Made by a program: the position numbers and the translations under genes. Positions 17,679 to 40,310 of a stretch of DNA of 64,000 bases are shown here, one piece after another. The stretch spans positions 3,507-67,506 of the forward strand of contig LBYF01000001.1 of the NCBI GenBank assembly GCA_000996025.1. The letters run 5' to 3'. Every line of letters begins with the position of its first letter. Positions within the stretch are counted from its first letter, which is position 1. Source of the stretch: Parcubacteria group bacterium GW2011_GWA2_40_14 (GTDB taxonomy: Bacteria > Patescibacteriota > Minisyncoccia > Phycocordibacterales > DATDWN01). The notes under the pieces were generated by a model, which was given only the letters and a program-made list of their open reading frames with translations, made no database searches and had not been told where the DNA came from.

Positions 17679-17722
17679 ACACATACGTTAACTTCTTGCT
17701 ATAGCAAGAAGTTAACGTATGT
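17679..17722. repeat. Perfect 19-bp-stem palindrome with GCTATAGC centre (family-7-like) after recJ
   Basis: The sequence is cacatacgttaacttcttgctatagcaagaagttaacgtatgtg. Confidence 0.6.
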
Positions 17723-17768
17723 GGGTCTAAGAAGTTATTTATTGTGGATTGCCGTGTATAATGATGAA

Positions 17769-18449
17769 ATGGAAACAGTTATATTTACTGACGGTTCCGC
17801 TCGGGGCAATCCCGGACCGGGAGGTTGGGGAGCTATTGTCTTGACGTCTGACACAGCTATGGAGCTTGGTGGTAGGGAGGGACATACAACAAACAACAGG
17901 ATGGAACTTTTGGCTGTTATTTCTGCGCTGGAAAATGTAGCAACACATGAGGAAATCACCGTTTATACTGATTCAGCCTACATAGTCAACGGTATTACTC
18001 GTTGGGTCAAAGGATGGGCAGAAAATAAATGGAAAACCACTAAGAAAGAAGAAGTTTTAAATAAAGATTTGTGGCAACAGCTTACGCGGGCAACTGAACG
18101 CAGAGTAATTAAGTGGGAATTGGTAAAAGGACATGCGGGAGTAGGGGGAAATGAAAGGTGTGACGCTATCGCCACCGAATTTGCCGACAATAATCCTCTG
18201 GTTCTCTATAATGGTTCGCGTGAACGCTATGGTGTGGATGTTTCTGGTATTCAAACCAAAGAAGCAAAAAAATCAAAATCTAAAAGCAAAACCACAGCCT
18301 ATTCGTATGTAAGCGAAATTAACGGAGAGATTAAAGTCCACAAAACATGGGAAGAATGCAAGGCTCGAGTGCATGGAGTAGCCGCTCGTTTCAAGAAATC
18401 CGTCTCACCCGCAGACGAAGAGGAAATCATTCGTGAGTTCACCGAATAA
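17769..18449 (+). CDS. rnhA: Ribonuclease HI with a C-terminal hybrid-binding (Cauli_VI / RNase H1 N-terminus-like) domain
   Basis: The RNase H core reads TDGSARGNPGPGGWGAIV...YTDSAYIVNG. The C-terminal 50 aa (AYSYVSEINGEIKVHKTWEECKARVHGVAARFKKSVSPADEEEIIREF) match the HBD consensus. Confidence 0.8.
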   Translation: METVIFTDGSARGNPGPGGWGAIVLTSDTAMELGGREGHTTNNRMELLAVISALENVATHEEITVYTDSAYIVNGITRWVKGWAENKWKTTKKEEVLNKDLWQQLTRATERRVIKWELVKGHAGVGGNERCDAIATEFADNNPLVLYNGSRERYGVDVSGIQTKEAKKSKSKSKTTAYSYVSEINGEIKVHKTWEECKARVHGVAARFKKSVSPADEEEIIREFTE

Positions 18450-18523
18450 TTTGCATATGTATTCAAGAAACTCAATTATAATTTTGGCACAGTATATTGT
18501 ACCAAAATAGAAATATTAAACTC

Positions 18524-19999
18524 ATGATTATTTCAAGTATTTTTGGTTTTATTTCAGGTATTGGCGTGGGTTCATTTTTTTATATCAATCTCGGAATTTT
18601 TCTTGCCCTCGGGTTTTTGATAATAATATTTTTTATATATAAAAATTTTGTTCCTGAGGAAAATCGTCGTGTTTTAGTTTTTATTTCCATTTTTCTTCTA
18701 GGAACACTCTGTGGATTAGCTAGAGTAACATTTTCCAATCTTTATACCACATCGCAACTCGGTTCATTTGTAGAACAGAAAATTTCTACGGAGGGTATTA
18801 TCGTCGGTGAGCCGGATGTTAGAGAAAACAATACAAAATTGACCGTGCGTTTGTCGCAAGTTAATTTTTTAAATAGCACTACTTCTGTTTCAGAGAAAAT
18901 ATTGGTAACCACATCTCTGTATCCAGAATTTCATTATGGCGACAAAGTTGCAATAGTTTTAACTTTGAAAGAGCCAAAAAATATAGATTCTGGCGATGGA
19001 CATGTCTTTGATTATAAAGGGTATCTGAAAGTCAGGGGAATTTGGTATACAGCCAGTTTTGTCAAAATAAGCCTTATTTCTAGGGGCCATGGCAGTTTGA
19101 TTAAAACGGGATTATTCAAAATAAAGCACGCATTTACGGCTTCATTAAATAGAGTATTGCCCGAGCCAGAATCCAGTCTCATGGCAGGATTACTTCTCGG
19201 TACAAAACAATCTTTGGGCAAAGATTTACTTCTGGAATTTCAGAAGACGGGTGTGTCACATATAATTGTGCTTTCTGGTTACAATATTGCCATTGTGGCA
19301 ACAAGCATTATGTCTTTTTTGAGTTTCTTGCCGAAAAGTTTTTCTTTCAGTTTTGGAATTGGCAGTATTATTTTGTTTACTATTCTCTCTGGAGGAAGCG
19401 CTTCAGCATGGCGAGCGGCTATTATGGTCATGGCCGCTCTTGTAGCCAAAAGATATAACCGCGATTACAAAGCCAGTCGCGTACTCGGCTTTGCTATCGT
19501 GCTTATGCTTGCTCCCAACCCACTCCTTCTTATTTTTGACCCATCATTTCAACTTTCAGTGTTGGCTACTATCGGAATTATTTTTGTTTCACCTCTTATT
19601 TTCCCATATTTTAAATGGGTAACAAAAAAATGGGAGTTCCGAGAAATTATTTCCACCACCATCGCCACTCAATTAACCGTCCTGCCATTTCTTATTTACA
19701 ATACAGGTCTTTTCTCTCTTGTTTCTCTGCCGGTGAACATTTTAATTCTTGCTACCATACCCACAACAATGTTTCTCGGTTTTATTACCGGTATCGCTGG
19801 TTTAATTTCACTTTATCTATCTTTCATCCCGGCATTTTTTGCTTATATTCTCCTCTGGTATCAGCTCACAGTCGTCCACATTGGAGCTAGCCTACCTTTC
19901 GGCTCAATTCTTCTCGCCACATTTTCTCCACTCGTTTTAATTTTCACCTACTTAATAATTTTCCTATTTTTGTATTTTCTAAAAAAGCAAACTATTTAA
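18524..19999 (+). CDS. comEC: ComEC/Rec2 competence membrane channel protein (N-terminal and transmembrane part only)
   Basis: It is polytopic with a ComEC-like core; no beta-lactamase domain lies in the same ORF. The track ORF begins at a TTG at 18497. Confidence 0.7.
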   Translation: MIISSIFGFISGIGVGSFFYINLGIFLALGFLIIIFFIYKNFVPEENRRVLVFISIFLLGTLCGLARVTFSNLYTTSQLGSFVEQKISTEGIIVGEPDVRENNTKLTVRLSQVNFLNSTTSVSEKILVTTSLYPEFHYGDKVAIVLTLKEPKNIDSGDGHVFDYKGYLKVRGIWYTASFVKISLISRGHGSLIKTGLFKIKHAFTASLNRVLPEPESSLMAGLLLGTKQSLGKDLLLEFQKTGVSHIIVLSGYNIAIVATSIMSFLSFLPKSFSFSFGIGSIILFTILSGGSASAWRAAIMVMAALVAKRYNRDYKASRVLGFAIVLMLAPNPLLLIFDPSFQLSVLATIGIIFVSPLIFPYFKWVTKKWEFREIISTTIATQLTVLPFLIYNTGLFSLVSLPVNILILATIPTTMFLGFITGIAGLISLYLSFIPAFFAYILLWYQLTVVHIGASLPFGSILLATFSPLVLIFTYLIIFLFLYFLKKQTI

Positions 20000-20441
20000 A
20001 GTATTTGCTGAAGTAGTCTTTACAGTACTCAAAACTATATTGAAATCCAGAATGTAATGGTTCTGGTAAGTTATCTATTTTAAACCAACCAAGCTCTTCA
20101 ATTTTATGAGGCTCATTATTTTTTACTTCATCTCAATTTACTTTGATGATAAACGGCATTGCAATCCAGTGAGTTTTTACACCGTTGAACATTCTAAAAA
20201 TATCATGTGCGGGAAGGCGCTCTGAAATCTCTCCTTTGCACCCGTATTCTTCCCGCACTTCTTGGAGAACATTTTCCTCGACTAAAAGATTAAATTCTAG
20301 TTTTCCTCCACCCGGATCCCATTTTCCTTGCTCATCCCTACACTGCAGACCTCTTTTGTGCATGAATAGATTTCCTTCTCCATCGTGGCAATAGAATGGA
20401 GTTGTGATACCAACATAGTCGTATCCAATTTTCATATCCAT
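19992..20441 (-). pseudogene. NUDIX hydrolase interrupted by an in-frame TGA at 20133-20135
   Basis: The upstream part has the Nudix box GGGKLEFNLLVEENVLQEVREEYG. After the TGA the same frame continues for 46 codons with NUDIX-like sequence (DEVKNNEPHKIEELGWFKIDNLPEPLHSGF...) to a TAG at 19992. Confidence 0.55.
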
Positions 20442-20443
20442 AC

Positions 20444-21046
20444 TTATTTTGCTACACTGTTAAAATTCTCCTCAACCTTCTTCCAATTCAGATTTGCAAA
20501 AAAATCTTCAACGTATTGTTTCTTGCCAGATGGTTGGTAGTCGGCGACAAAGGCGTGTTCCCACATATCTAAAGCGAGTATCGGAGTGCATCCAACGAGC
20601 TGGCCGAGCTGATGGTCTTCAATGTAGGCGTTCAGTAGTCTGTGTTCTTTTGTATCTAGGTAGAGCATTGCCCAGCCTACTCCGCGAGTCATGGCGATTG
20701 ACTTGAACCTCGCAAGCCAAGTGTCAAATGAACCCCATAGATAGACAATTGATTTATATAATTCTCCGTCTGGTGAAATGGGAGATGGTCCGTCGGACAG
20801 AGAATCAAAATAAACTTCATGATTTCGCATACCGTCATATTCAAATCCAAACCTTCTCTGTGTTTCGTTGATAATGATAATATATGTATCCGTCTGGCCG
20901 GATTTTGTGAACTCATCGATTTTTTCCAAAGCAAAATTGGTATGTTTGACATATCCCGCATAGAGCTTCAAATGTTCCTCAATTGTCTTGCTCGAAACTC
21001 CTTTTAATTCGGGGATATTAAATTTTTTCTCTTCAAATTGCATCAT
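20444..21046 (-). CDS. sodA: Fe/Mn superoxide dismutase
   Basis: The DMWEHAF motif and the N-terminal helical hairpin H-x-x-H are present. Confidence 0.9.
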   Translation of the reverse strand: MMQFEEKKFNIPELKGVSSKTIEEHLKLYAGYVKHTNFALEKIDEFTKSGQTDTYIIIINETQRRFGFEYDGMRNHEVYFDSLSDGPSPISPDGELYKSIVYLWGSFDTWLARFKSIAMTRGVGWAMLYLDTKEHRLLNAYIEDHQLGQLVGCTPILALDMWEHAFVADYQPSGKKQYVEDFFANLNWKKVEENFNSVAK

Positions 21047-21094
21047 AGTAGTTTTTAAATTTTAAATTAAAAATTTTCCTATATACTATAGCAT

Positions 21095-22006
21095 ATGAGG
21101 CAAATTTTTCTGAATGTTCGGACTTATCTACGATGGTATGCTCTCATTTTTCTAGTATTTTTTAGCGTCATTTTGTGGTTTGCTGTAATCCACGAAGACA
21201 GAAATGGGATTTTGACTTTTGCTGTTCTGGATGTTGGCCAAGGCGATGCCCTTTTTATTGAATCTCCCACGGGTACGCAGGTTTTGGTGGATGGCGGTCC
21301 CGGCAAAACCCTTATGCGAGAAATAACCGCTGTCATGCCATGGTATGACAGACATATAGATATGTTGGTTGTAACCAATCCGGACAAAGACCACTACGAG
21401 GGATTCATACCTCTTACGGGCAAATATTCTATTGATGTAGTGGTTGAACCGGGAACAGTATCGCTAACTTCGGAGTATGCAGTGTTGGAAAAAGAAATTG
21501 CTGTGAAGAAAATAACCAAAATTTTGGCCAGACGAGGACAAATAATAGACCTCGGTGGAGGAGCGTATTTGCAAATCCTTTTTCCTGACCGTGACGTTTC
21601 CGGATTATCCTCAAATAACGGCTCAATTGTTACGCGTTTAGTTTATGGCCATACATCCGTTATCTTACAGGGCGATTCTACTTCAAATATAGAGAATTAT
21701 CTAGTTACACTAGGGGAGGGTAACTTAAAAAGCACCATACTCAAAGCTGGTCACCACGGCTCGCGGACAAGTACATCGGAAGAATATGTTACAGCGGTTT
21801 CACCGCTGTGGACGGTTATTTCTTCTGGGATAAATAATAGTTACGGACATCCGCACAAAGAAACGTTGGACACTTTGAATAAATTAAAAATCCCCACGCT
21901 CGATACTTGTAATAATGGCAGAATCATTTTTGAATCGGATGGCAAAAGTTTTATTCTGAAAAATAAAAATCCTATTCTCGCGATATCTGGATGTGTTAAG
22001 AAATAA
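21095..22006 (+). CDS. Membrane-anchored metallo-beta-lactamase-fold protein resembling the ComEC C-terminal domain
   Basis: There is an N-terminal TM and a LDVGQGDA...H.GSRTS MBL-type motif set, as in the ComEC nuclease domain. Confidence 0.65.
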   Translation: MRQIFLNVRTYLRWYALIFLVFFSVILWFAVIHEDRNGILTFAVLDVGQGDALFIESPTGTQVLVDGGPGKTLMREITAVMPWYDRHIDMLVVTNPDKDHYEGFIPLTGKYSIDVVVEPGTVSLTSEYAVLEKEIAVKKITKILARRGQIIDLGGGAYLQILFPDRDVSGLSSNNGSIVTRLVYGHTSVILQGDSTSNIENYLVTLGEGNLKSTILKAGHHGSRTSTSEEYVTAVSPLWTVISSGINNSYGHPHKETLDTLNKLKIPTLDTCNNGRIIFESDGKSFILKNKNPILAISGCVKK

Positions 22007-22023
22007 AATTTTCATATAATAAA

Positions 22024-22072
22024 ATCATACACGTTCTTTGCGATCGCAAAGAACGTGTATGATTTTATTATG
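22024..22072. terminator. Perfect 22-bp-stem palindrome centred on GCGATCGC between the convergent MBL gene and rpmB
   Basis: The sequence is aaaatcatacacgttctttgcgatcgcaaagaacgtgtatgatttt. Confidence 0.6.
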
Positions 22073-22089
22073 AGTAAAACGTGGGAGTT

Positions 22090-22332
22090 CTAAATAAGGT
22101 CGGCTTTTTTGAGAGTAGCAAAAGCGCCGTTTTTCTGGATGGTTTTGATGCCACGAGCAGAGAGGGTCAGTGTCATTGACTTTTTCAGTTCAGGAATGTA
22201 GATCTTCTTTTTTTGAAGATTTGCGTATTTACGCTTCATTCCCGTGGGGTTGAACTGGGTTGCACGAGTGCGGTTTGAGTATCCACCTTGCAGTTGGGAA
22301 GATTTCCCAGTTATGATACATACTTTAGCCAT
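22090..22332 (-). CDS. rpmB: 50S ribosomal protein L28
   Basis: MAKVCIITGKSSQLQGGYSNRTRATQFNPTGMKRK is typical of L28. The start was moved to the internal ATG. Confidence 0.8.
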   Translation of the reverse strand: MAKVCIITGKSSQLQGGYSNRTRATQFNPTGMKRKYANLQKKKIYIPELKKSMTLTLSARGIKTIQKNGAFATLKKADLI

Positions 22333-22445
22333 AGTGTTTACGACTTCCAAATTTGGCGAACTCCTTGCTAAAATCTGAAAAATTCTCGTCACCGTACATG
22401 AGTACGACTCCTCGCTTTTTTCAGATTTTCACTTCGGATTTCATC
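22333..22445. repeat. Family-5 element forming the rpmB 5' leader (CGCCAAATTTGGAAGTC motif 10 nt upstream of the ATG)
   Basis: It shares a GTCACCGTAC..GTACG hairpin core and CCAAATTTGG terminal words with the copies at 31221 and 43411. Confidence 0.65.
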
Positions 22446-22507
22446 CAAATTATGAAAGTCTTGAATATATAATAATATCCGCGTTATGGTATCATAGAAT
22501 TATAAAT

Positions 22508-23122
22508 ATGCAAATTGATTTTATATTTTCCATTTTGATACTTATTTTTTCTGTCATTGTCCATGAGGTTTCTCACGGGTTTGCGGCATATTTGCAAGGC
22601 GACAATACGGCAAAATTTGCTGGACGATTAACCCTAAATCCCCTCAGTCATTTGGAATGGTTCGGTTCCTTCCTCCTGCCAGTCATGTCCTATTTTCTCG
22701 GAGGGTTTATTATTGGCTGGGCAAAACCGGTGCCGTTTAATCCATACAATTTACGCAACCAAAGATGGGGAGAATCCATTGTAGCTTTTGCTGGACCGGC
22801 TGCAAATATTTGTTTAGCTCTAATCTTCGGATTGCTTATTCGTTTTGGAGTTTTGATTCAGTTTGGTGAAGCTTTTGTCCAAATAGCCGTTATGATTGTT
22901 TTTATAAATCTTATCCTTGCTACATTTAATCTCATTCCCATACCACCACTGGACGGTTCCAAAATCCTTTTTTCTGTTTTGCCAAATAGTTTACTTGAAG
23001 TCCGTTCGTTTCTAGAAAGAAACAGTATATTTATTTTAATTTTCTTTATCTTTTTCCTCTGGCAATTTATTTTGCCTCTCGTATCTCTTGAATTTTCTCT
23101 CATTACTGGATTTGCCTTGTAA
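22508..23122 (+). CDS. Site-2 protease family (M50) zinc metalloprotease
   Basis: HEVSHG (HExxH) lies within a TM helix, and the protein is polytopic. Confidence 0.75.
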   Translation: MQIDFIFSILILIFSVIVHEVSHGFAAYLQGDNTAKFAGRLTLNPLSHLEWFGSFLLPVMSYFLGGFIIGWAKPVPFNPYNLRNQRWGESIVAFAGPAANICLALIFGLLIRFGVLIQFGEAFVQIAVMIVFINLILATFNLIPIPPLDGSKILFSVLPNSLLEVRSFLERNSIFILIFFIFFLWQFILPLVSLEFSLITGFAL

Positions 23123-23180
23123 AATAAAGCTTTTTGGTGGGTTAGAAAAGAAAATAGAAAAATTGCTTGATTTTCAATGT

Positions 23181-23216
23181 CATCTCATACGATATATCGT
23201 ATGAGATGAAGTTTTG
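23181..23216. repeat. Family-7 perfect palindrome (catacgatatatcgtatg)
   Basis: The sequence is tctcatacgatatatcgtatgaga. Confidence 0.55.
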
Positions 23217-23264
23217 CATTTTGTTTGCAATTTTTTTCTATACACCACGAGCTTAAAAGACTTT

Positions 23265-23400
23265 CAGATTTGAGACAAGGTCGCGTATAAAATGCAAAAG
23301 AGAAGCGGAGGCGTACTTAGTGGTACGACGAGCATCACTTTTGCATTTTAGACGATGAGATTGGCCAAATGTGGAAGTCAAAAACCACACGGTTGCAATA
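23265..23400. promoter_or_regulatory. rpsL leader: 12-bp-stem hairpin (aaaatgcaaaag...cttttgcatttt) plus a GATTGGCCAAATGTGGAAGTC family-5 motif
   Basis: The same 14-mer gagattggccaaat occurs in the rplT leader, and related motifs occur in the tuf, rpmB and rpmC leaders. Confidence 0.55.
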
Positions 23401-23429
23401 TTGGTACATATGTATTACCATTGCAACCA

Positions 23430-23843
23430 ATGTCTACGATAAATCAGTTAGTCCGTCACAAGCGAACAAAAGTTAAAGTTAAGCCGCGAGCAGTGGCTCT
23501 TACTCGCGGATTTAACAATCTGACAAACCGTCCGGTTTTTTATCCTGCTCCATTCAAACGAGGGGTTTGCACAAAAGTAACAACAAAGACTCCAAAGAAA
23601 CCAAACTCTGCTATACGAAAGATTGCCCGTGTTCGTCTGACAAACGGCATGGAAGTGACAGCTTATATTCCGGGTATGGGACATACTCTACAAGAGCACT
23701 CTGTGGTTTTGCTTCGAGGCGGAAAGGTGAAAGATGTCGGTGTACGTTATACTATTGTCCGAGGGATGTTAGACGCGACTGGGGTAGAAAAGAGAATGAA
23801 GGGGCGAAGCCGTTACGGTGCCAAGAGACCGAAAGGCAAATAA
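23430..23843 (+). CDS. rpsL: 30S ribosomal protein S12
   Basis: [12 protein letters not shown]...[10 protein letters not shown] is S12-like. The start was moved to the internal ATG. Confidence 0.9.
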
Positions 23844-24620: not shown

Positions 24621-24715
24621 CAAGACCTAGTCATATATTATAGATTGCTCAAAAAGGTGTTTTAGTATATAGTCTTATCTATTCTTATCCGAGAGGATTT
24701 TTTATTTTATAAACG

Positions 24716-26867: not shown

Positions 26868-26935
26868 AAAAACTCTACAGACACTGGGTGTCTGTAGAGT
26901 TTTTTGCTAACACTGGGTGTTAGCAAGTTTTTAAT
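26868..26935 (+). terminator. Tandem pair of family-6 hairpins (both with an ACACTGGGTGT loop) after fusA
   Basis: Each of ctctacagacactgggtgtctgtagag and gctaacactgggtgttagc is followed by a T-run. Confidence 0.65.
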
Positions 26936-31222: not shown

Positions 31223-31340
31223 CTTCCAAATTCGGCGTACTGCGTTGTTGGACTTCAAAATTTGATTGTCACCGTACGACGAGTACGGCTCCAATCAAAT
31301 TCCTCGTCCGCCTAGCATCGCATCTAAATTTGAAAGTTAG
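31221..31340. repeat. Family-5 element after tuf (AACTTCCAAATTCGGCG ... GTCACCGTACGACGAGTACGGCTCC ... AAATTTGAAAGTT)
   Basis: It has CCAAAT-type terminal inverted repeats and a central hairpin, and there are about nine related copies. Confidence 0.7.
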
Positions 31341-31405: not shown

Positions 31406-31740
31406 ATTGACTTTTATTTTTCATCTTCTATTTTAAATCCGTCTGCAGGTTGACCTTCTTTTAATGCTCGTACCGCAGCTTCCAAAGCAAGCACACTCAT
31501 TTTATATTGGTCTTCCTTGGCTTTGTTAATTATAGATAGAATTTATTCTCCTAAAGCTTTTTTCTTTTCAATTTCTCCCACTTGTTCTGGTGGCATCTCC
31601 ATACTGGATGTTTCTTCACTCATGATTTTTTGTTATTTAATATGTCATCATTATAGCATGGGAAGTGATTTTGAGTTAATAACTTCACTACGATACCCCA
31701 TCATTTAGAGGCGGGGGTTTGTTTTGCCAAAAATTCATCT

Positions 31741-31805
31741 CTTACGATATCTCGTAATAAATACACCTATCATACGCTATAGCGTATGATAGGTGTATAG
31801 TGAAC
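31741..31805. repeat. Family-7 perfect palindromes (cttacgatatctcgtaa; atacacctatcatacgctatagcgtatgataggtgtat)
   Basis: The second palindrome is nearly identical to the copy at 40262. Confidence 0.6.
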
Positions 31806-31925: not shown

Positions 31926-32291
31926 TTGATATATAAAACTGTCGGAAAAGTTTATCGTCCTATTTTGAAAGAATATGTTACTTTTAATTCTAAAGGTTTT
32001 TATCACTTACGATACGATACTCACGAGAAAGCGAGAAGGGTGAAAGAACAAATATACAAATTTAATTTGCTTCCACTTATTATTCCCGCAATTAAAAACG
32101 CAAAAAATGTGTTTGATTATAAAAAAGAGCAGTATTCCAAACTCCTTGGCAAATATTACGAAATATGGGAACTTCGAGAAACTGTTGGAGGGAAAAACCC
32201 AACTTCGCTATCTGTGATTTTGAGAAGGATCGGGAACGGAAATATTACATTTCTTAGTGTGTATGACAGAAAACCAAAAATGAAAAAATAG
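31926..32291 (+). CDS. Hypothetical protein; the C-terminal half weakly resembles RelE/ParE-fold toxins
   Basis: YEIWELRETVGG...SVILRRIGNGNITFLSVYDRK echoes the RelE pattern (ELR..YRIIY..V.IL.IGHRK). The match is weak. Confidence 0.3.
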   Translation: MIYKTVGKVYRPILKEYVTFNSKGFYHLRYDTHEKARRVKEQIYKFNLLPLIIPAIKNAKNVFDYKKEQYSKLLGKYYEIWELRETVGGKNPTSLSVILRRIGNGNITFLSVYDRKPKMKK

Positions 32292-32464: not shown

Positions 32465-32475
32465 CTTTCTTACAT

Positions 32476-34427: not shown

Positions 34428-34438
34428 CTCTACCCAAT
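34355..34438. repeat. Family-3 palindromic repeat overlapping the rplD 3' end
   Basis: The copy reads gagtaaagagtaaagagttacg...cgatactcataactcgtaactct. Confidence 0.7.
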
Positions 34439-34717
34439 ATGAATGATCTGACACATATTTTAATAAGACCGCACATTACCGAGAAAGCAACAATATCGGC
34501 GGAGTCTTCAGTCTATGTTTTTGAAATAGATGCTCGTACCACAAAAGCTATAGTGAAAAAAGCATTTGTAGAAAAATACAAAATCACTCCGCTAAAAATC
34601 AGAACGGTTACTATTCCAGCCAAGCAAGTTTTTGTCCGAGGCAAGAGAGGGACAAAGGCCAGTTACAAAAAGGCCTACATTTATTTAAAGAAAGGAACTA
34701 AGGTAGAAAATTTATAG
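34439..34717 (+). CDS. rplW: 50S ribosomal protein L23
   Basis: The 92-aa ORF reads ...ITEKAT....VFEID. Confidence 0.85.
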   Translation: MNDLTHILIRPHITEKATISAESSVYVFEIDARTTKAIVKKAFVEKYKITPLKIRTVTIPAKQVFVRGKRGTKASYKKAYIYLKKGTKVENL

Positions 34718-34772
34718 GAATAATAAAGCCGCGCTAAAAGGACGGTTGCGCGACATGATTTCGCTAAATCAC

Positions 34773-35615
34773 ATGAAAAGATATAAACCAACAACAAAAT
34801 CCCGCCGACAAATGACAACTATTTCATTTGGGGATTTTGTGACAACAAACGAGCCGGAGAAATCGTTAACGCACGGTTTCCGAAGACAAATGGGACGAAA
34901 CCATCACGGCAAAGTAACAACTCGTCACAAAGGAGGTGGTCACAAAAGACTCTTCCGAGAGATTGATTTTAAATACGACAAAATAAATGTTCCGTACACT
35001 ATAAAAACAGTAGAGTATGACCCAAACCGCTCTGGCTTTATTGGCTTGGCACAGTATAAAGATGGTGAGAAAAGATACGTTCTTCTTCCTCGTGGAGTAA
35101 AAGTGGGCGATATCCTAGTGACTTCGGAGACAGCAGAAGTAAAAGTTGGAAACAGGCTACCTCTCCGTAACATCACTATCGGCACATTTGTTTACAATGT
35201 AGAAGTCAAGCCAAAAGGTGGCGCAAAAATGGCTCGTTCTGCAGGAAACTTTGTGGAGGTCATTGCAAAGGACGCCGGTTATGTGGACATCAAACTTCCT
35301 TCTACTGAAATCCGCAAAGTGTTGGACACAGCATGGGCATCAATTGGAGATGTTTCAAATCAGGAAAACCGACTGGTCAATCTCGGCAAAGCCGGCCGTT
35401 CACGATGGCTTGGCATACGCCCAACTGTTCGTGGTACGGCCATGAACCCAGTTGACCACCCACACGGAGGAGGTGAAGGTCGCCAAGGTCGCGGCCGCAG
35501 ACGAGCAATCTCCATCTACGGTAAGGGAACAGGAAAGGGTCAGAAGTCCCGAACTCCAAAGAAGTACTCCAATAAATTCATCGTCTCACGAAGAAAAGTT
35601 GGAAAAAGAAAGTAA
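34773..35615 (+). CDS. rplB: 50S ribosomal protein L2
   Basis: MKRYKPTTKSRRQMT...GGGHKR...HPHGGGEG are L2 signatures. The start was moved to the internal ATG. Confidence 0.9.
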   Translation: MKRYKPTTKSRRQMTTISFGDFVTTNEPEKSLTHGFRRQMGRNHHGKVTTRHKGGGHKRLFREIDFKYDKINVPYTIKTVEYDPNRSGFIGLAQYKDGEKRYVLLPRGVKVGDILVTSETAEVKVGNRLPLRNITIGTFVYNVEVKPKGGAKMARSAGNFVEVIAKDAGYVDIKLPSTEIRKVLDTAWASIGDVSNQENRLVNLGKAGRSRWLGIRPTVRGTAMNPVDHPHGGGEGRQGRGRRRAISIYGKGTGKGQKSRTPKKYSNKFIVSRRKVGKRK

Positions 35616-35644
35616 AAATGATATAGTTGGTTGAGGAGGGACAC

Positions 35645-35893
35645 ATGAGTCTAGAAGAGAGAGAGAGCTTAGAGACAATCGCCAGTCAATTAGGAAAAGA
35701 ATTGGTCGGAGTTATTCCGGGCGTTTGGGGCACCAGTCTTACTGCAAGGCCTGTAAAAGAGCCAGAGTTAAAGCTTAAAGTGATTTGTACCGAGGAAGCT
35801 AAACAAAAAGTTCTTCAAAAATACGGCGACGATAGTTACCGAGGTCATAAACTTTATTTTCAAATTTCAGAACAAGGTCCTCGATTTGCGTAA
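35645..35893 (+). CDS. Hypothetical 82-aa protein inserted between rplB and rpsS, with a strong SD (GAGGAGGG) and its own terminator
   Basis: This is an ORF call. It has an SD 6 nt upstream of the ATG and is followed by a GC hairpin plus T-run. No family was recognised. Confidence 0.5.
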   Translation: MSLEERESLETIASQLGKELVGVIPGVWGTSLTARPVKEPELKLKVICTEEAKQKVLQKYGDDSYRGHKLYFQISEQGPRFA

Positions 35894-35905
35894 CCATAAT
35901 TTTCT

Positions 35906-35936
35906 CCAGGGCGGTCCAGGCGACCGCCCTTTTTCA
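35906..35936 (+). terminator. Rho-independent terminator (gggcggtc caggc gaccgccc plus a T-run)
   Basis: The GC-rich stem is unusual in this AT-rich context. Confidence 0.7.
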
Positions 35937-35965
35937 TTTGACAATATATAGTATATTATATAGTA
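35937..35965 (+). promoter_or_regulatory. Internal sigma70-type promoter ahead of rpsS (TTGACA - 17 nt - TAGTAT)
   Basis: The hexamers and spacing are a perfect consensus, directly after the terminator. Confidence 0.55.
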
Positions 35966-36055
35966 TGTAGCCCAAGTAAAGAGCCCATTACCTCTTATAC
36001 GATTTGTTTGCGGTAGTCGACAGAATACCACTAACAAAGTGGTTTTTAATTTGTT

Positions 36056-36100
36056 TTTTTATTCGTATCCATTCGTGTTTTAATTCGTTATTTCGTATTT
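36056..36100. repeat. Family-1 repeat half-copy abutting the rpsS ATG
   Basis: The sequence is attcgtatccattcgtgttttaattcgttatttcgtatttATG. Confidence 0.65.
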
Positions 36101-36454
36101 ATGACAAGGTCATCAAAAAAAGGTCCATATGTAGATGAACGAGTTCTCAAGAAAATTGAGGGCAAAAAGCCACTTGAAACAGGGGTTATTAAAACGTGGT
36201 CAAGAGCTTGTGTCATATCACCAGAAATGGTCGGTTTTAATTTTGGTGTTCACAATGGCAGAACTCATCTGGAAGTTCTTGTCTCCGAAGACATGGTCGG
36301 ACACCGTCTGGGTGAATTTTCTCCAACTAAAAAGTTTATAAAACACGGAGGAAAGATGCAGAAAGAGCAAGAGCAGAAAGCAAAGGAAGGCGAGATTGCC
36401 GCCGCACAGTCTGCAAAGGCAGTGACCGCTGAACCAGCAGGAGCAAAAAAATAA
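36101..36454 (+). CDS. rpsS: 30S ribosomal protein S19 with a 24-aa K/Q/A-rich C-terminal extension
   Basis: [13 protein letters not shown]...GHRLGEF is the S19 core. Confidence 0.9.
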
Positions 36455-36465
36455 CCGCGATACAA

Positions 36466-36545
36466 ATATGCGAATACATACGAATAAAACGAATAGAATA
36501 CAAGAAATGGAATTAATTTTCGTATCATTCGCATAAATTCGTATA
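36466..36545. repeat. Degenerate family-1 repeat upstream of rplV
   Basis: The tacgaata / attcgcata words are arranged palindromically. Confidence 0.5.
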
Positions 36546-36563
36546 TTGGTATCGATAAACTAT

Positions 36564-36962
36564 ATGAAAACTGCTCACGCCACACTTTCAAATTTCCGAC
36601 AAGCACCACGCAAAATGCGTATGGTGGCAAATACTGTACGTGGTAAAAGAGTTGTTGATGCCTTGATTAATTTGGAATTTACTGCAAAAAAAGCCTCACT
36701 TCCTATAAAAACTCTTATACAATCTGCCGTGGCAAATGCAAAAGCTATGGACTTGCCTACAGAAAATCTAATAATAAAAACTATCAAAGTAGATTCAGGC
36801 AAAATTTTATACAGGCGAATGCCAGCCGCTCAAGGAAGCGCGCACCCTATACGTAAGAGAACCAGTTCAATCTTTGTTGAACTGGGCGAGAATCGAGAAC
36901 CGAGTACCGAGAAACGAAAAATCAAGAATCCAAAATCGAAACTCGTATCTCGTATCTCTTAA
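36564..36962 (+). CDS. rplV: 50S ribosomal protein L22 with a repeat-encoded C-terminal tail
   Basis: The L22 core is followed by ENREPSTEKRKIKNPKSKLVSRIS, which is encoded by the family-3 repeat. Confidence 0.85.
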   Translation: MKTAHATLSNFRQAPRKMRMVANTVRGKRVVDALINLEFTAKKASLPIKTLIQSAVANAKAMDLPTENLIIKTIKVDSGKILYRRMPAAQGSAHPIRKRTSSIFVELGENREPSTEKRKIKNPKSKLVSRIS

Positions 36963-36973
36963 CTCTACCTACC
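36885..36973. repeat. Family-3 palindromic repeat overlapping the rplV 3' end
   Basis: The copy reads gagaatcgagaaccgagtaccgagaaacg...cgaaactcgtatctcgtatctcttaactct. Confidence 0.7.
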
Positions 36974-37633
36974 ATGACACATACCGTTCATCCATATTCA
37001 CATCGCCTAGGAATCATCCGAGATTGGAAATCTCGCTGGTTTGGCGTAAAAAATAAATACAAGGAATTTTTGAAAAGTGATGTGCTTTTACGGGAGTATT
37101 TGGAGAAAAAACTTCGTGATAACTATGTCAGCAATATAGAAATGGAGCGAGGTGAGAAAGTGTTGCGTATTATTATTGAGACATCTCGTCCAGGTATGAT
37201 TATTGGTCGCTCAGGTGATGGCGCCGTTAAATTAAAAAAGGATATTTCTGCATTTTTGAATAAACATAAACTTTCTCCTCTCGGCGAAGTGAAAGTGGAT
37301 ATAAAAGAAATTAAATCTCCCGAGTCAAACGCCACAATCGTTGCCCAAATGGTTGCCGATGGATTGGAAAAGCGTTTGCCTTTCCGCCGTGTGGTGAAAC
37401 AGATGGTGGAAAAAGTTATGGCAAATCGTGATGTCCTTGGTGTAAAGATAGAATTGTCTGGACGACTCGGTGGCGCTTCAATGGCACGTCAGGAAAAAAT
37501 AAAGAAAGGTCGTATTCCGCTTCAGACTTTCCGCGCCGATGTGGATTTTTGTAAATATAAAACAAGAGTCCCTTATGGGGGTGTTGGTATTAAGGTTTGG
37601 ATATATAAGGGAGAAGTGTTCGCAAAAAAGTAA
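36974..37633 (+). CDS. rpsC: 30S ribosomal protein S3
   Basis: The 219-aa ORF has a KH domain and the S3 C-terminus. Confidence 0.9.
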   Translation: MTHTVHPYSHRLGIIRDWKSRWFGVKNKYKEFLKSDVLLREYLEKKLRDNYVSNIEMERGEKVLRIIIETSRPGMIIGRSGDGAVKLKKDISAFLNKHKLSPLGEVKVDIKEIKSPESNATIVAQMVADGLEKRLPFRRVVKQMVEKVMANRDVLGVKIELSGRLGGASMARQEKIKKGRIPLQTFRADVDFCKYKTRVPYGGVGIKVWIYKGEVFAKK

Positions 37634-37721
37634 AAAGTTTGTAAAGTTATAAAGTTCATAAAGTAAAATCCATAATCCACTTTACAAACTTTAAAAACTT
37701 TCAACTTTATAAACTAAATTT
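37634..37721. repeat. Family-2 palindromic repeat between rpsC and rplP
   Basis: The copy reads aaagtttgtaaagttataaagttcataaagt ... ctttacaaactttaaaaactttcaactttataaact. Confidence 0.75.
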
Positions 37722-38138
37722 ATGTTGTTACCAAAAAAAGTAAAATACAGAAAGTGGCAAACATTTCGAAAGAACGCTAATAAAGTTGGTGTGGCTTCAC
37801 GTGGTACCACTATTTCTTTCGGCTCTCATGCCTTGAAAGCCCTGTCAGGAGCGCGTATTATGTCAAACCAGATTGAAGCTGGCAGAAAAGCCCTATCTCG
37901 CGCAGTTGGTAAGACCGGCAAGATTTGGATCCGCATTTTTCCAGATATGCCCCTGACCAAAAAGCCAGCTGAAGTGAAGCTTGGTAAAGGAAAGGGTGAT
38001 TTGTTTGGCTACTGCGCGCCGGTTAAGCCAGGAAGAATTATTTTTGAAGTTGATGGTGTTACGGATGCAGTTGCCAGAGAAGCTTTGCGAAAAGCTGGAA
38101 CGAAATTACCCCTCAAAACAAAGATAATCTCTCACTAG
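37722..38138 (+). CDS. rplP: 50S ribosomal protein L16
   Basis: [11 protein letters not shown]...GKGKGD is typical of L16. Confidence 0.9.
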
Positions 38139-38320
38139 AACTTCCAAATTATGACCAATGTGATTTTTCACAATTCAACTTCAGATTTTCCTCCTTACAG
38201 GAGCAGTACACCTTTTCGATCTTTTGAGTACAAAAACTCTGAAAAGGTCTTGCGAAGTCATACCCATGACTTCTCACTCGACCTTGGCCAAATTTGAAAG
38301 TTCTAGCCAAATGTGAAATT
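38139..38320. repeat. Family-5 element after rplP with 14-bp terminal inverted repeats (AGAACTTCCAAATT / AATTTGAAAGTTCT); it also supplies the rpmC leader motif GCCAAATGTGAAAT
   Basis: It has a terminal-inverted-repeat structure and shares its internal start AAATTATGACC with the copy at 43411. Confidence 0.7.
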
Positions 38321-38333
38321 TAGTGTATATTAA

Positions 38334-38537
38334 ATGAAATTTATGAAAGAGTTTACAAACAAAAGTAAAAAGGAACTACAGACAATACTTTCAGAAAAAA
38401 GACTAGCTTTGCGCACATTTCGCTTTTCCATAGCGGGTAGCAATATGCGCAATGTGAAAGAAGGTAGCGCACTGAAGAAAGATATTGCTATGGTGTTGAC
38501 TCTTTTGAATGTGAAAGCAAAAGTGAATAACGAATAA
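38334..38537 (+). CDS. rpmC: 50S ribosomal protein L29
   Basis: The helical ORF is 67 aa, begins KSKKELQTIL, and is in the expected operon position. Confidence 0.75.
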   Translation: MKFMKEFTNKSKKELQTILSEKRLALRTFRFSIAGSNMRNVKEGSALKKDIAMVLTLLNVKAKVNNE

Positions 38538-38543
38538 AGAATA

Positions 38544-38801
38544 ATGAATAATGAAAAAATAAAAAATAATACAGTAAAAACTCTCTCGGGAGTAGTAGTG
38601 TCAAATAAGATGACAGACACTGTTGTGGTGGAAGTTGTTCGTTTTGTAAAACATCCAAAGTACGGCAAGTACGTCTCTAAAAGCAAAAAGTTTAAAGCCC
38701 ACGATGTCGGCAATACAAAGCAAATTGGGGATAAGGTTACCATAGAGGAGTGCAGACCAATTTCAAAAGATAAACACTTTAGAATAGTCGAAAGTTCGTA
38801 A
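38544..38801 (+). CDS. rpsQ: 30S ribosomal protein S17
   Basis: [18 protein letters not shown]...HD is the S17 OB fold. Confidence 0.85.
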
Positions 38802-38878
38802 AGTTATAAAGTTCATAAAGCAGACTCAAAACCCACTTTACAAACTTTAAAAACTTTATAACTTTATAAACTAAAATT
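38802..38878. repeat. Family-2 palindromic repeat between rpsQ and rplN
   Basis: The copy reads gaaagttcgtaaagttataaagttcataaagc...ctttacaaactttaaaaactttataactttataaact. Confidence 0.75.
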
Positions 38879-39250
38879 ATGATCCAACCGCAATCAATTG
38901 TCAAAATAGCAGATAACACCGGAGCAAAAATCGGACGCGTGTTCAAAGTGCTCGGAAGTTCCAAAAAGAGATACGCCAGCATAGGCGAGTTGGTGGTTCT
39001 CTCTGTCCAGAAAGCTGAACCTAGAAAAACAACAAAGAAAAAAGATATTTTGTATGCAGTGGTTGTCCGTCAACGAGCGCCTTTTCGAAGAAAGGACGGC
39101 TCATATATTCGTTTTGACGAAAATGCAGTAGTTATAGTGGTCAAAGATAAAAAAGAGCCGGTAGCAGGACGTATTTTCGGTCCTATCCCGCGGGAACTTG
39201 GTGAGATGGGGTATCAAAAGATTATTAGTTTAGCCCCAGAAGTAGTCTAA
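38879..39250 (+). CDS. rplN: 50S ribosomal protein L14
   Basis: MIQPQSIVKIADNTGAK is typical of L14. Confidence 0.9.
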   Translation: MIQPQSIVKIADNTGAKIGRVFKVLGSSKKRYASIGELVVLSVQKAEPRKTTKKKDILYAVVVRQRAPFRRKDGSYIRFDENAVVIVVKDKKEPVAGRIFGPIPRELGEMGYQKIISLAPEVV

Positions 39251-39335
39251 AATTGAGTCAAGAGTAGCGAGATAAGAGTCACGAAGAATGCAAAATCGTA
39301 ACTCGAGTCTCGGAACTCGTAACTCTATCAATATC
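39251..39335. repeat. Family-3 palindromic repeat between rplN and rplX
   Basis: The copy reads gagtagcgagataagagtcacg...cgtaactcgagtctcggaactcgtaactct. It creates a spurious upstream ORF extension of rplX. Confidence 0.7.
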
Positions 39336-39602
39336 ATGAATGTAAAAAAAGATGACAAAGTAATAGTGCTCACCGGTAAAGACAAAGGTAAAACAGGAAC
39401 CGTTGTCAAATCATTTCCAAAAGAAAACAGAGTCATTGTTTCTGGTGTAAATATTTTGAAAGTTCATCAGAAGCCTCGAAAGAGTGGAGAGAAAGGACAG
39501 ATACTAGACAAGACCATGCCGATAGATGTATCCAACGTAAAAAGGGTCGAGGCACGAGGTACGAGAAAAGAGACCCGAAAAATCAAAGGCTCAAAATCGT
39601 AA
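39336..39602 (+). CDS. rplX: 50S ribosomal protein L24 with a repeat-encoded C-terminal tail
   Basis: MNVKKDDKVIVLTGKDKGK is the KOW domain. The track ORF starts 16 codons upstream, inside the repeat. Confidence 0.85.
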   Translation: MNVKKDDKVIVLTGKDKGKTGTVVKSFPKENRVIVSGVNILKVHQKPRKSGEKGQILDKTMPIDVSNVKRVEARGTRKETRKIKGSKS

Positions 39603-39637
39603 CTCTATACTCGTAACTCTTAACTCTATTAAAAACT
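39560..39637. repeat. Family-3 palindromic repeat overlapping the rplX 3' end
   Basis: The copy reads gtacgagaaaagagacccg...cgtaactctatactcgtaactcttaactct. Confidence 0.7.
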
Positions 39638-40234
39638 ATGGAATCAATCAAAGAAAAAACAAAAGAAGCTTTTGATATTATGAAATCGGAGTTTCATTAT
39701 AAAAACATCATGCAAGCCCCAAAAATAGAAAAGGTGGTGATTTCTTGTGGTGTTGGTTCGCAGAAAGACAAAAAGAAACTAGACCTTATAGAAGACCGCC
39801 TCTTAAAAATCACAGGACAGAAACCTGTTCGCAAGGGCGCAAAAATATCAATCGCCGCTTTCAAAGTGCGAGAAGGGGATACTGTCGGTATGCAAATCAC
39901 TTTGCGTGGACAGAGAATGTATGATTTTCTGGACCGATTGGTCAATATTGCACTTCCTCGCACGAAAGATTTTCGAGGAATCTCAGCAAATGCAGTTGAT
40001 GAAATGGGTAACTACACTTTAGGTATAAAAGAAAACACTATTTTCCCAGAGTCGTCCGATGAAGATTTGAAAGATGTTTTCGGTCTTGCCGTTACTATTG
40101 TTACAAATGTTAAAAACAAAGATGAGACAAAAGCTTTTTTGACTCACCTCGGTTTTCCCTTCAAAAAACAATCAGCCGATAAGGCGAAAGCTACGACAGT
40201 CCATGTATCAAAAAGCCGAGCCCCAAAGAAGTAA
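39638..40234 (+). CDS. rplE: 50S ribosomal protein L5
   Basis: The 198-aa ORF has L5 motifs and a basic C-terminal tail. Confidence 0.9.
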   Translation: MESIKEKTKEAFDIMKSEFHYKNIMQAPKIEKVVISCGVGSQKDKKKLDLIEDRLLKITGQKPVRKGAKISIAAFKVREGDTVGMQITLRGQRMYDFLDRLVNIALPRTKDFRGISANAVDEMGNYTLGIKENTIFPESSDEDLKDVFGLAVTIVTNVKNKDETKAFLTHLGFPFKKQSADKAKATTVHVSKSRAPKK

Positions 40235-40261
40235 AATTATTTTCATCTACAATAAATGGAA

Positions 40262-40310
40262 TTTTTTACTCATACACCTATCACACGCTATAGCGTGTGA
40301 TAGGTGTATG
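40262..40310. repeat. Family-7 perfect palindrome (20-bp stem, GCTATAGC centre)
   Basis: The sequence is actcatacacctatcacacgctatagcgtgtgataggtgtatgagt. Confidence 0.7.

Follow-up and report, generated by a model that had tools for sequence, protein, structure and literature searches.

We examined a 64-kb stretch of DNA (the window, i.e. the whole sequence analysed) from a groundwater Candidatus Zambryskibacteria (Parcubacteria/CPR), which carries five perfect inverted repeats, A to E, all with zero spacer and with arms of 15–28 nt (Table 1). The original prediction had recognised all five from the sequence, albeit with coordinates that were off by 1–8 nt and with a narrower range of stem lengths (17–22 nt). 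When the window was simulated 100 times under a first-order Markov model, the mean number of palindromes was 0.00 for arms of at least 15 nt and 0.08 for arms of at least 10 nt, versus five in the window at either threshold. Assembly artefacts are ruled out for A–E. Palindromes A to D were identical across nine independent assemblies, D was invariant in 16, and D was intact in seven assemblies in which E was perfect over arms of 19–23 nt (one contig folds back at E).

Table 1. Palindromes and associated sites in the window (a slash marks the axis of symmetry).
Feature	Coordinates	Strand	Description
Palindrome A (type II)	17680..17723	.	22-nt arms; centre GCTATAGC; CACATACGTTA-ACTTCT-TGCTA/TAGCA-AGAAGT-TAACGTATGTG
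Palindrome B	22016..22071	.	28-nt perfect arms (35 nt at 91%); centre GCGATCGC
Palindrome C (type I)	23180..23209	.	15-nt arms; centre CGATATATCG; TCATCT-CATACGATATATCGTATG-AGATGA, exact 18-bp core
Imperfect 18-bp site CTTACGATATCTCGTAAT	31741..31758	.	separate from D; 30 bp centre-to-centre
Palindrome D (type I')	31761..31798	.	19-nt arms; centre GCTATAGC; ATACACCTAT-CATACG-CTA/TAG-CGTATG-ATAGGTGTAT
Palindrome E (type I')	40268..40313	.	23-nt arms; centre GCTATAGC; ACT-CATACACCTAT-CACACG-CTA/TAG-CGTGTG-ATAGGTGTATG-AGT
Promoter-like TTGAAC-17-TATATT	40313..40341	+	abuts E, 5' of secreted-protein gene (ATG 40425); consensus match only

Palindrome A lies 35 nt 3' of the recJ stop codon and ~45 nt 5' of the rnhA ATG (17769), and a terminator scan placed a short hairpin with a T-run 5' of it, at 17620–17645. 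Palindrome B occupies the gap between two convergent genes (21095..22006 on the plus strand and L28, 22090..22392, on the minus strand), with TCATACACGTT in the outer part of both arms and A/T runs within them. Palindrome C is 58 nt 3' of the stop codon of an M50 peptidase gene and 5' of the rpsL leader, and E is 33 nt 3' of the L5 stop codon. The ORFs on either side of palindrome D diverge, one of 69 aa on the minus strand (~31414–31623) and one on the plus strand at 31926, with D in the intergenic region between them. The octamers GCTATAGC and GCGATCGC, which had been named as the centres of the family, apply to A, B, D and E, but C is centred on neither. Near-identity of the last two copies held for D and E, whose single difference, a T>C substitution, is mirrored on the opposite arm by A>G; the position given for the first of them, 31741, belongs to the separate imperfect 18-bp site. 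Compared by eye, that site has four mismatches to the type I core and two to the L224 type, and appears to resemble the CTTACGATATATCGTAAG sites that flank a Taylorbacteria-type gene described below.

As had been proposed, the palindromes form a family: further copies exist elsewhere, and what they have in common goes beyond palindromic symmetry to the sequence itself. The family divides into two related sub-families, with B only loosely attached. Type I (C, D and E) follows the pattern CAYAC-N8-GTRTG, realised as CATAC-GATATATC-GTATG in C, CATAC-GCTATAGC-GTATG in D and CACAC-GCTATAGC-GTGTG in E. Matches to the core within the window had no mismatches at C and two at D, both in the spacer, versus 0.02 matches expected by chance. 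In type II, to which A and loosely also B belong, CATAC(G) is separated by 15 or 13 nt from a centre that reads GCTATAGC or GCGATCGC. The CATAC-N8-GTATG core is missing from both palindromes, the half-sites being 30 bp apart in A and 26 bp apart in B, and B is tied to the family solely by its outer CATAC at register 13.

Scanning the metagenome with CAYACGMTATAKCGTRTG recovered at least 133 matches at a minimum of 119 loci, comprising at least 79 distinct maximal perfect palindromes. The 18-bp core of C (CATACGATATATCGTATG) was present in more than 100 distinct places, nearly always inside a longer perfect palindrome with variable arms. Alignment of 105 distinct copies among the matches listed showed conservation spanning ~26 bp; the centre is conserved, the ends are variable and the perfect arms end sharply. 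Relatives of A could be aligned at two positions in the same organism as the window (L226:12580 and L226:18823) and at loci L017, L201 and L147, while E-type copies were found in unrelated contexts at L151 (adjoining ahpC) and L201. Among related species, the distribution of the palindromes is patchy.

The sole recurrent neighbour of core copies, among the matches listed, was a gene encoding a 128–143 aa protein with a match to the Pfam Trp_repressor family and a TrpR-like fold. Two independent routes led to this gene. Starting from the DNA pattern, at least 15 loci had a homologous gene of ~135 aa adjoining the palindrome, and a census that assigned flanking genes to Pfam families had Trp_repressor as its only recurrent family (8 of 49 genes with their start next to the palindrome and 10 of 63 with their stop next to it, matches listed). 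Starting from the protein sequence, all eight family members fetched had palindromes adjoining the gene. An upstream site lies 2–20 nt from the ATG in 17 of 17 distinct complete genes (13 by motif match and four degenerate sites by eye), where it overlaps a -10-like box, and a downstream site lies 0–47 nt from the stop codon (15 of the 17 by motif match, the other two by eye). The site also varies with protein lineage, although this comparison covers four lineages only, each with a different core: proteins with an SPST recognition helix accompany CATACGATATATCGTATG, the Taylorbacteria 128-aa type CTTACGATATATCGTAAG, proteins with an SPAT helix (P0053/P0047) TATCATATATGATA, and the paralogue P0104 TATCATATATTAATATATGATA. 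In related Zambryskibacteria the gene is located between uvrB and uvrA; neither the 64-kb window nor a further 10 kb from the same organism was found to contain a TrpR-like gene.

Six of seven proteins matched PF01371 at 28–40 bits (cut-off 27) and one at 24.4 bits, and sequence-profile matches in the PDB were to 3FRW, 3KOR and 3G1C. An AlphaFold2 model had pLDDT >90 for residues 11–100, and the top 33 Foldseek matches to this model were all TrpR or TrpR-like (target-normalised TM-scores 0.51–0.73). The N-terminus of the protein reads invariably MPH(I/V)SK, and ~40 aa at the C-terminus form an extension that was modelled with low confidence; the 601 hits to the family are all from Parcubacteria/Patescibacteria.

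TrpR and HisR bind 20-bp palindromes composed of 5-bp half-sites with an 8-bp spacer, and often autoregulate (PMC9413887). The predicted structure of the Parcubacteria protein, presumably a small all-helical HTH dimer, most resembles E. coli TrpR, which took the first 25 places among the Foldseek matches and 31 of the top 33. The trp, aroH and trpR operators likewise are 18–20 bp palindromes with 5-bp half-sites 8 bp apart, and TrpR autoregulates through an operator lying across the promoter of its own gene (PMC9413887 and established knowledge). However, the half-site is GNACT in E. coli and CATAC here, and the protein, of 128–143 aa, carries the N-terminal motif and C-terminal extension noted above. 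Its gene has a second site at the stop codon, perfect palindromes of 30–56 bp enclose many of the sites, and all 601 family hits are from Parcubacteria/Patescibacteria. By sequence, the closest solved relatives are of the YerC type (the three PDB entries above), as is HisR of Firmicutes (YerC/YecD-type), which has 20-bp palindromic operators with a consensus that differs by lineage and is frequently autoregulated (PMC9413887). Unlike the present family, HisR is shorter than 100 aa and acts on genes for histidine (his) biosynthesis and uptake, whereas the flanking-gene census (matches listed) comprised a varied set of housekeeping and translation genes and no his genes; in sequence, the sites described here are unrelated to the HisR motif, cacTTTA-N6-TAAAgtg.

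We consider it somewhat better than even (probability roughly 0.55) that the palindromes are operators of this homodimeric HTH protein, a Parcubacteria-specific member of the TrpR/YerC-HisR family. Most likely A–E are sites at which a protein binds, not mobile repeats, and the conserved core is present in at least three. Binding sites for a dimeric protein were one of three functions suggested in the original prediction, and they are the best supported of the three, given that the core in C, D and E flanks TrpR-family genes and has operator geometry. Each monomer would read one CATAC-type half-site, and two half-sites 8 bp apart (CATAC-GATATATC-GTATG) would make up an 18–20 bp core with the geometry of TrpR and HisR operators. 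The TrpR-like gene appears leaderless, with one site over a -10-like box 5–8 nt before the ATG and the second at the stop codon; the position of the former implies autorepression. Binding and repression, as well as any role of the long perfect arms, are what we infer from these observations. Weighing against operators are the absence of a TrpR-like gene from the window and the further 10 kb and the lack of the core in A and B. In addition, a site of 18–26 bp leaves sharp-ended perfect arms of up to 28 nt unexplained, and also the dominance of zero-spacer palindromes among the hairpins of motif-bearing genomes (49 non-core and 71 core, versus 22 hairpins with 4-nt loops).

Alternatively, the palindromes could be factor-independent, mostly bidirectional terminators or RNA hairpins at operon ends, with the link to the TrpR-like gene secondary, which we regard as rather unlikely. 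Their positions give this explanation some weight, as A, B, C and E are 10–58 nt 3' of a stop codon, B is between convergent genes with U-rich tails, and the terminator scan flagged B and C. Predicted RNA hairpins have folding energies of -19 to -38 kcal/mol (-32.9 for A, -37.9 for B and -38.2 for E) and z-scores of -5 to -12.6, and relatives have canonical A-run/T-run hairpins directly 3' of L5, the position occupied by E. Copies elsewhere in the metagenome were in 21 convergent versus 10 divergent gene contexts, and many had the form AAAAA-core-TTTTT (matches listed), both of which fit terminators better than operators. The absence of T-runs that had been claimed for the whole family holds for A, D and E, none of which has a U-tract, but not for B (arms AAAAT/ATTTT, then TTTTATTAT) or C (then AGTTTTGCATTTTG); thus only B and C combine a stable hairpin with a U-tract. 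A terminator would also be superfluous at several copies, which counts in favour of operators: D and both L226 A-type copies are in divergent promoter regions, and a canonical terminator is immediately 5' of the palindrome in L017, L201 and L183, and probably at A. In addition, an RNA hairpin would need neither the self-complementary loops of all five palindromes nor the absence of G:T pairs from every arm, and at the TrpR-like gene the upstream site shares nucleotides with the -10 box and the ATG. The 26-bp sequence is kept across lineages in which the flanking protein is only 30–40% identical, pointing to sequence-specific recognition. Terminators of Parcubacteria relatives share with the palindromes long perfect arms, positions directly after stop codons and between convergent genes, and the A-run/T-run flanks of B and many metagenome copies. 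However, their stems are GC-rich and non-conserved and their loops are mostly non-palindromic and 3–5 nt long (zero-spacer hairpins were 11 of 140 in relatives versus 5 of 10 in the window), whereas the palindrome family has a conserved AT-rich core that is also found in divergent promoter regions.

It is more doubtful still that the palindromes are small non-autonomous repeats of the REP/BIME or MITE type, mobilised by a transposase in trans and accumulating at harmless intergenic sites. Near-identical copies of 40–48 bp in unrelated contexts (D, E, L151 and L201, and the L226 A-type pair) are in keeping with mobility, as are the intergenic location of every copy, the enrichment of convergent regions and the patchy distribution among related species. 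REP/BIME elements associated with RAYT (TnpA_REP) are similarly short extragenic palindromes, several per genome and often after the 3' ends of genes, and a gene flanked by palindromes superficially recalls a REPtron. REPs, however, are imperfect palindromes with a 5' GTAG; the copies here are perfect, have CATAC(G) as their conserved motif with no GTAG-type signature, and are conserved at the centre and variable at the ends, the opposite of the pattern in elements bounded by terminal inverted repeats. Among the matches listed, only one neighbour recurs, an HTH-only, TrpR-family DNA-binding protein without a catalytic domain, unlike the Y1 HUH transposase of a REPtron. A Y1 transposase gene was near only one of ~105 distinct copies (one Y1_Tnp among 112 flanking genes, matches listed), 122 nt from the copy at L122; it is an ordinary IS200-type element that bears its own distinct subterminal hairpins. 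The RAYT association that had been suggested was not borne out, as tblastn with one Y1 query protein found no homologue in the window or any other fetched locus. A MITE or other element with terminal inverted repeats found no support either: the ends are not conserved, neither target-site duplications nor flanking direct repeats were seen in the sequences read, and a comparison of 9–16 assemblies of the population, the strain-level check originally proposed, detected no presence/absence polymorphism.

Least probable, and in our view very much so, are DNA-level structural, recombination or nickase sites (the last two also raised originally), for example cruciform-forming targets of a tyrosine recombinase, protelomerase-like or junction-resolving enzyme, or alternatively tolerated remnants of fold-back replication errors: perfect symmetry through AT-rich (TATA) centres that favour cruciform extrusion, the mirroring of all D/E-type copy differences on both arms, the prevalence of zero-spacer palindromes in motif-bearing genomes and a layout of 10–11 bp arms with a 4–6 bp centre, which we take to resemble recombinase core sites, are set against random fold-back errors not being expected to keep a 26-bp core and, as indirect tests, no recombinase, protelomerase or nuclease gene recurrently adjoining copies in the flanking-gene census (matches listed), and no inversion, deletion or hairpin end at the sites among 9–16 assemblies. 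The one fold-back contig, L001, a candidate hairpin end, has mirror symmetry along all of its 85 kb and is most plausibly an artefact of the assembler.

Returning to operators of the TrpR-like protein, the sites in the window would differ in how they present its half-sites. D and E keep the half-sites around a GCTATAGC spacer and carry CATAC again on the outer side, at a distance of one helical turn, while in A a nested palindrome would set the CATACG half-sites 22 bp further apart, and B is similar but looser. A and B belong to the same sequence superfamily, but whether the TrpR-like protein would bind them is uncertain, and B also looks like an ordinary bidirectional terminator. The long perfect arms could double as a hairpin or insulator, or alternatively their symmetry could be kept by arm-to-arm templated repair. 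At C, D and E, the protein would be positioned at the boundaries of the rpsL, S10 and spc-type ribosomal-protein operons.

An exhaustive scan of the window for perfect zero-spacer palindromes with arms of at least 15 nt returned exactly five (A to E, see table), confirming those picked out in the original prediction, although its description of them as lacking T-runs was wrong for B and C. In 100 Markov simulations of the window, no such palindromes arose. Among hairpins with perfect arms of at least 12 nt, 5 of 10 in the window were palindromic through the centre, compared with 11 of 140 in Parcubacteria relatives (963 kb) and 0 of 10 in non-CPR (Candidate Phyla Radiation) loci (336 kb). Palindromes A to D were identical across nine independent assemblies, and D and E were intact in seven, implying that they are real and stable; comparison among strains revealed no presence/absence polymorphism of the palindromes. 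Predicted RNA folding energies of A to E were -19 to -38 kcal/mol. One entire MEGAHIT contig (L001, ERZ27254759 k141_1152038, 85,366 bp) folded back perfectly on itself, with palindrome E as the exact mirror point (centre at window position 40290, arms of at least 9,944 nt) and 15 similar places besides. This fold-back is almost certainly an assembler artefact, set off by palindrome E together with strain heterogeneity just downstream. That perfect palindromes yield fold-back contigs in metagenome assemblies is relevant to annotators of CPR genomes.

Coordinates of the five palindromes and of other features in the window and in compared loci
Feature	Location	Description
Palindrome A	window 17680-17723	type II, 22-nt arms
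Palindrome B	window 22016-22071	28-nt arms
Palindrome C	window 23180-23209	type I, 15-nt arms
Palindrome D	window 31761-31798	type I, 19-nt arms
Palindrome E	window 40268-40313	type I, 23-nt arms
Putative leaderless start of rnhA	window 17757-17762; 17769	TATAAT; ATG
Further type II copies, window's organism	L226:12580; L226:18823	
Structured element	window 23283-23385; ~31259-31340; 43436-43531	CGCGTATAAAAT...hairpin...ATTTTAGACGATGA(ATTGGCCAAATGTGGAAG)
Insertion between L5 and S14	window 40425-41912	secreted-protein gene (start 40425) and 344-aa protein with four tandem HTH_3/XRE domains
Gap in secreted-protein gene	window 40662-40664; L002:11027-11152	126 nt missing relative to other strains
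Palindromes in series	L198:9287-9570	four different, perfect
Third CTTACGATATATCGTAAG palindrome, Taylorbacteria MHRF01000001	L224:7576-7599	inside called reverse-transcriptase gene
Reverse-transcriptase gene	L224:7332-8664	
ATGTCAA(A/G)G-N-C(T/C)TTGACAT palindromes	window 1080-1106; 14476-14498; 16448-16505; L017:4417, 9139, 15121; L216:13305, 19705	spacer 1-5 nt
TTGCTAACAC-(TGG/TCC)-GTGTTAGCAA hairpins	window 2424-2468; 26868-26926; L216:7853-7885	A/T-run flanks
Paired 9-nt-unit arrays	window 5498-5535; 37634-37715; 38791-38872; 56759-56851	AAAGTTCAT x3-4, then ACTTTACAA x4, mutually inverted

The window has a G+C content of approximately 39%, and contigs 99.9% identical to it were found in Rifle groundwater metagenomes and in GCA_001824155.1 and GCA_001823775.1. 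Based on ribosomal protein L5, the nearest species representatives were Candidatus Zambryskibacteria and other Parcubacteria. Gene order from 15 to 45 kb is recJ, rnhA, comEC, sodA, L28, M50 peptidase, rpsL-rpsG-fusA, an 852-aa unknown, tuf, the S10 operon through L5, an inserted secreted-protein gene, a 4xHTH XRE-type gene and S14-S8-L6. The insertion splits the spc-type operon; many relatives have a terminator directly after L5 in its place. At the gap within the secreted-protein gene, the junction makes a TAG stop that shortens the product from 170 aa to 79 aa, and contigs including L006 and L007 terminate exactly there. Cumulative GC skew turns near 4-7 kb. The turn is flanked by ClpX-like and PilB-like genes, not dnaA/dnaN, so we make no claim of an origin, and oriC-proximal centromere-like sites were rejected.

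Aligned outward from their centres, the copies fell into two related types. Type I (C, D and E) reads CAYACG-NTATAN-CGTRTG, equivalent to CATAC half-sites 8 bp apart, with an extra CATAC one helical turn outward in D and E. The exact core occurs in C, between the M50 peptidase gene and the rpsL leader. Palindrome D keeps both half-sites around the spacer GCTATAGC and lies in the divergent region upstream of the gene preceding the S10 operon, 30 bp from a degenerate CTTAC-type site, while E lies 33 nt after L5, abutting a promoter-like TTGAAC-17-TATATT. Near-identical E-type copies adjoin ahpC (L151) and occur in L201, and every difference between these and E is mirrored on both arms. Type II (A) reads CACATACGTTA-N6-TGCTA·TAGCA-N6-TAACGTATGTG (the point marks the centre), or, alternatively viewed, is a 22-bp nested palindrome interrupting CATACG-TTA...TAA-CGTATG. 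The start of rnhA, which appears leaderless from its sequence, follows palindrome A by about 45 nt; the two other A-type copies in the same organism occupy divergent intergenic regions, and the type is also present in L017 (another Zambryskibacteria), L201 and L147. When perfect palindromes without the inner core were considered (arms of 14 nt or more), CATAC occurred 15 nt from the centre in 4 cases versus 0.1 expected for composition-matched 5-mers. The only features linking palindrome B to the family are TCATACACGTT at register 13 and a GC-AT-GC centre, which makes it a weak candidate member. An analogy with DNA-uptake sequences was rejected, as neither CATAC (65 versus 63 expected) nor CATACG (14 versus 13 expected) was enriched in the window.

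We found no literature on such palindromes in CPR. A single metagenome scan with CAYACGMTATAKCGTRTG gave at least 133 matches at no fewer than 119 loci, comprising at least 79 different maximal perfect palindromes. Among the matches listed, almost all palindromes had CATACGATATATCGTATG in common, conservation extended to about ±13 as A-W-W-W-core-W-W-W-T (105 distinct copies), and complementarity outside each perfect arm (9-24 nt) fell at once to a background of 0.21-0.42. The same listed loci held 49 more zero-spacer palindromes without the core; hairpins with 4-nt loops, by comparison, numbered only 22. Roughly half of those 49 palindromes had a TATA centre, and other recurrent cores were GCTATAGC, CTAATTCGCGCGAATTAG and CCAGTATACTGG. 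By crude gene calls, contexts of the listed loci were 21 convergent, 37 tandem, 10 divergent, 20 nominally inside ORFs and 31 at contig edges. At L198, the four palindromes in series (two of CCAGTATACTGG type, one with the core-I sequence and one GCATACGGACCTATAGGTCCGTATGC) share one 370-nt intergenic region, which suggests composite regulatory regions.

In the multi-copy loci L112, L175 and L180, palindromes flank a small gene whose product starts MPH(I/V)SK and was assigned to PF01371 (Trp_repressor). Homologues adjoined the palindrome in 15 pattern-derived loci (tblastn), and a profile search recovered 601 relatives, all named ones being Patescibacteria or Parcubacteria. Trp_repressor was also the only recurrent Pfam family among genes adjoining the listed copies (8 of 49 start-adjacent and 10 of 63 stop-adjacent), the remainder being diverse housekeeping genes. 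In an independent test with members fetched by protein sequence, perfect or near-perfect palindromes lay beside the gene in 8 of 8. All 17 distinct complete TrpR-like genes had an upstream site ending 2-20 nt before the ATG; motif matching recognised 13 of these sites, and the remaining 4, which are degenerate, were read by eye. A second site overlapped the stop or followed within 47 nt in 15 of 17 by motif match, the other two being read by eye. The right arm of the upstream site gives TATGAT, TATGTT or TATAAT 5-8 nt before the ATG, a predicted leaderless layout. Clusters of copies 75-85 nt apart surround the TrpR-like gene; a tRNA explanation of this spacing was rejected, with ARAGORN tRNAs near copies in four loci only (L157, L164, L171 and L107).

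The site co-varied with the protein across four lineages: CATACGATATATCGTATG accompanies an SPST recognition helix, CTTACGATATATCGTAAG the 128-aa Taylorbacteria type, TATCATATATGATA an SPAT helix and TATCATATATTAATATATGATA the paralogue P0104. The AlphaFold2 model of the protein had high confidence for residues 11-100, all 33 of its top-ranking PDB matches were E. coli TrpR or TrpR-like proteins, and the nearest solved proteins by sequence were of YerC/HisR type (3FRW, 3KOR and 3G1C). Operators of TrpR and HisR are described as 20-bp palindromes in which 8 bp separate two 5-bp half-sites, and autoregulation is frequent (PMC9413887); CATAC-N8-GTATG has exactly this geometry. The original prediction had offered REP-like elements, recombination or nickase sites, or binding sites for a dimeric protein; the TrpR-family link, the bracketing of TrpR-like genes and the operator geometry support the last. 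Overall, we assign a probability of roughly 55% to A to E as a set being sites of a TrpR-family regulator, with higher confidence for C, D and E and low confidence for A and B. TrpR-family regulators and operators are themselves known, and what is new is a CPR-specific variant, with an unusual architecture of predicted sites at both ends of the regulator's own gene, within long perfect palindromes.

The TrpR-like gene was absent from the 64-kb window and from 10 kb of extra sequence from its organism, and signature-repeat matching assigned no regulator-bearing contig to that organism. In related Zambryskibacteria the gene lies between uvrB and uvrA, a position conserved between uvrB and uvrA-uvrC in L213, L214, L218, L219 and L223 (Zambryskibacteria and relatives). 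Its downstream palindrome therefore sits approximately 100-300 nt upstream of uvrA, and a link to control of DNA-repair genes is possible. The Taylorbacteria reverse-transcriptase gene that contains a third palindrome is part of a diversity-generating-retroelement-like pair (RVT_1 and bAvd).

Three features go beyond what an operator model explains: the arms are long and perfectly symmetric, zero-spacer palindromes with TATA centres are in general over-represented in these genomes, and copies are over-represented in convergent regions. Two possible explanations, which could both apply, are that repair templated within a strand preserves and lengthens matching arms after a palindromic core has arisen, and that the sites serve additionally as hairpin terminators or insulators. 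Transcription termination is itself a viable reading for B, and possibly for C: B lies between convergent genes with U-rich tails and is adequately explained as a bidirectional terminator. This reading is not viable for D or A-type copies. The palindromes in L017, L201 and L183 come directly after a canonical terminator.

A broader reading, which we consider unlikely, is that the Parcubacteria-specific TrpR-like protein and long perfect TATA-centred palindromes form a genome-punctuation system. Bound by the protein and able to form cruciforms or hairpins, the elements would mark the boundaries of operons, those for ribosomal proteins among them, and act as switchable insulators or terminators; arm-to-arm templated repair, not selection on individual base pairs, would keep their symmetry perfect. 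Type II would then be CATACG-TTA[22-bp nested palindrome]TAA-CGTATG, in which the canonical operator is reconstituted only upon extrusion of the inner palindrome, coupling binding to DNA supercoiling.

Recombination or telomere-type sites lacked a linked enzyme and products. The REP/RAYT and IS200 reading failed its defining tests: Trp_repressor, not RAYT, was the recurrent neighbour, and tblastn with the one Y1 transposase seen near a copy gave no homologue in the window or the other loci. A MITE-type reading failed on architecture and on the lack of strain polymorphism. A resemblance to NrdR or CRP/LexA boxes was rejected on the grounds that the half-sites are oriented differently and that neither nrd nor SOS genes form the context. 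The 4xHTH XRE protein beside E showed no recurrent association elsewhere that would favour it as the binder, and a viral-contig scan with the core pattern gave six non-palindromic matches from one coding family, hence no phage link.

Other repeats were noticed. The structured element recurs in the window ahead of ribosomal-protein genes; some strains (L228-L231) carry an additional 83 nt after it, contig L226 changes within it to a different locus (RNase_H_2, hisS, bipA), and end motifs resembling its own are found in related Zambryskibacteria (L008, L015, L020, L025 and L026). A second palindrome family, found in several Parcubacteria, contains back-to-back TTGACA-like hexamers. A hairpin family with a common stem looks like a canonical terminator of conserved sequence, and paired 9-nt-unit arrays are intergenic, in the ribosomal-protein cluster and elsewhere.

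Because CPR bacteria remain largely uncultivated, next to nothing is, to our knowledge, known of how they regulate transcription. Our analysis supplies a concrete, directly testable regulator-site pair: a conserved family of 601 TrpR-like proteins and a sharply defined 18-26 bp palindromic core, with a recognisable, putatively autoregulated and leaderless gene layout and more sites before rpsL, S10 and spc-type operons. Should the binding prove real, this family would become a candidate for small-molecule-responsive control of the translation apparatus in reduced genomes.
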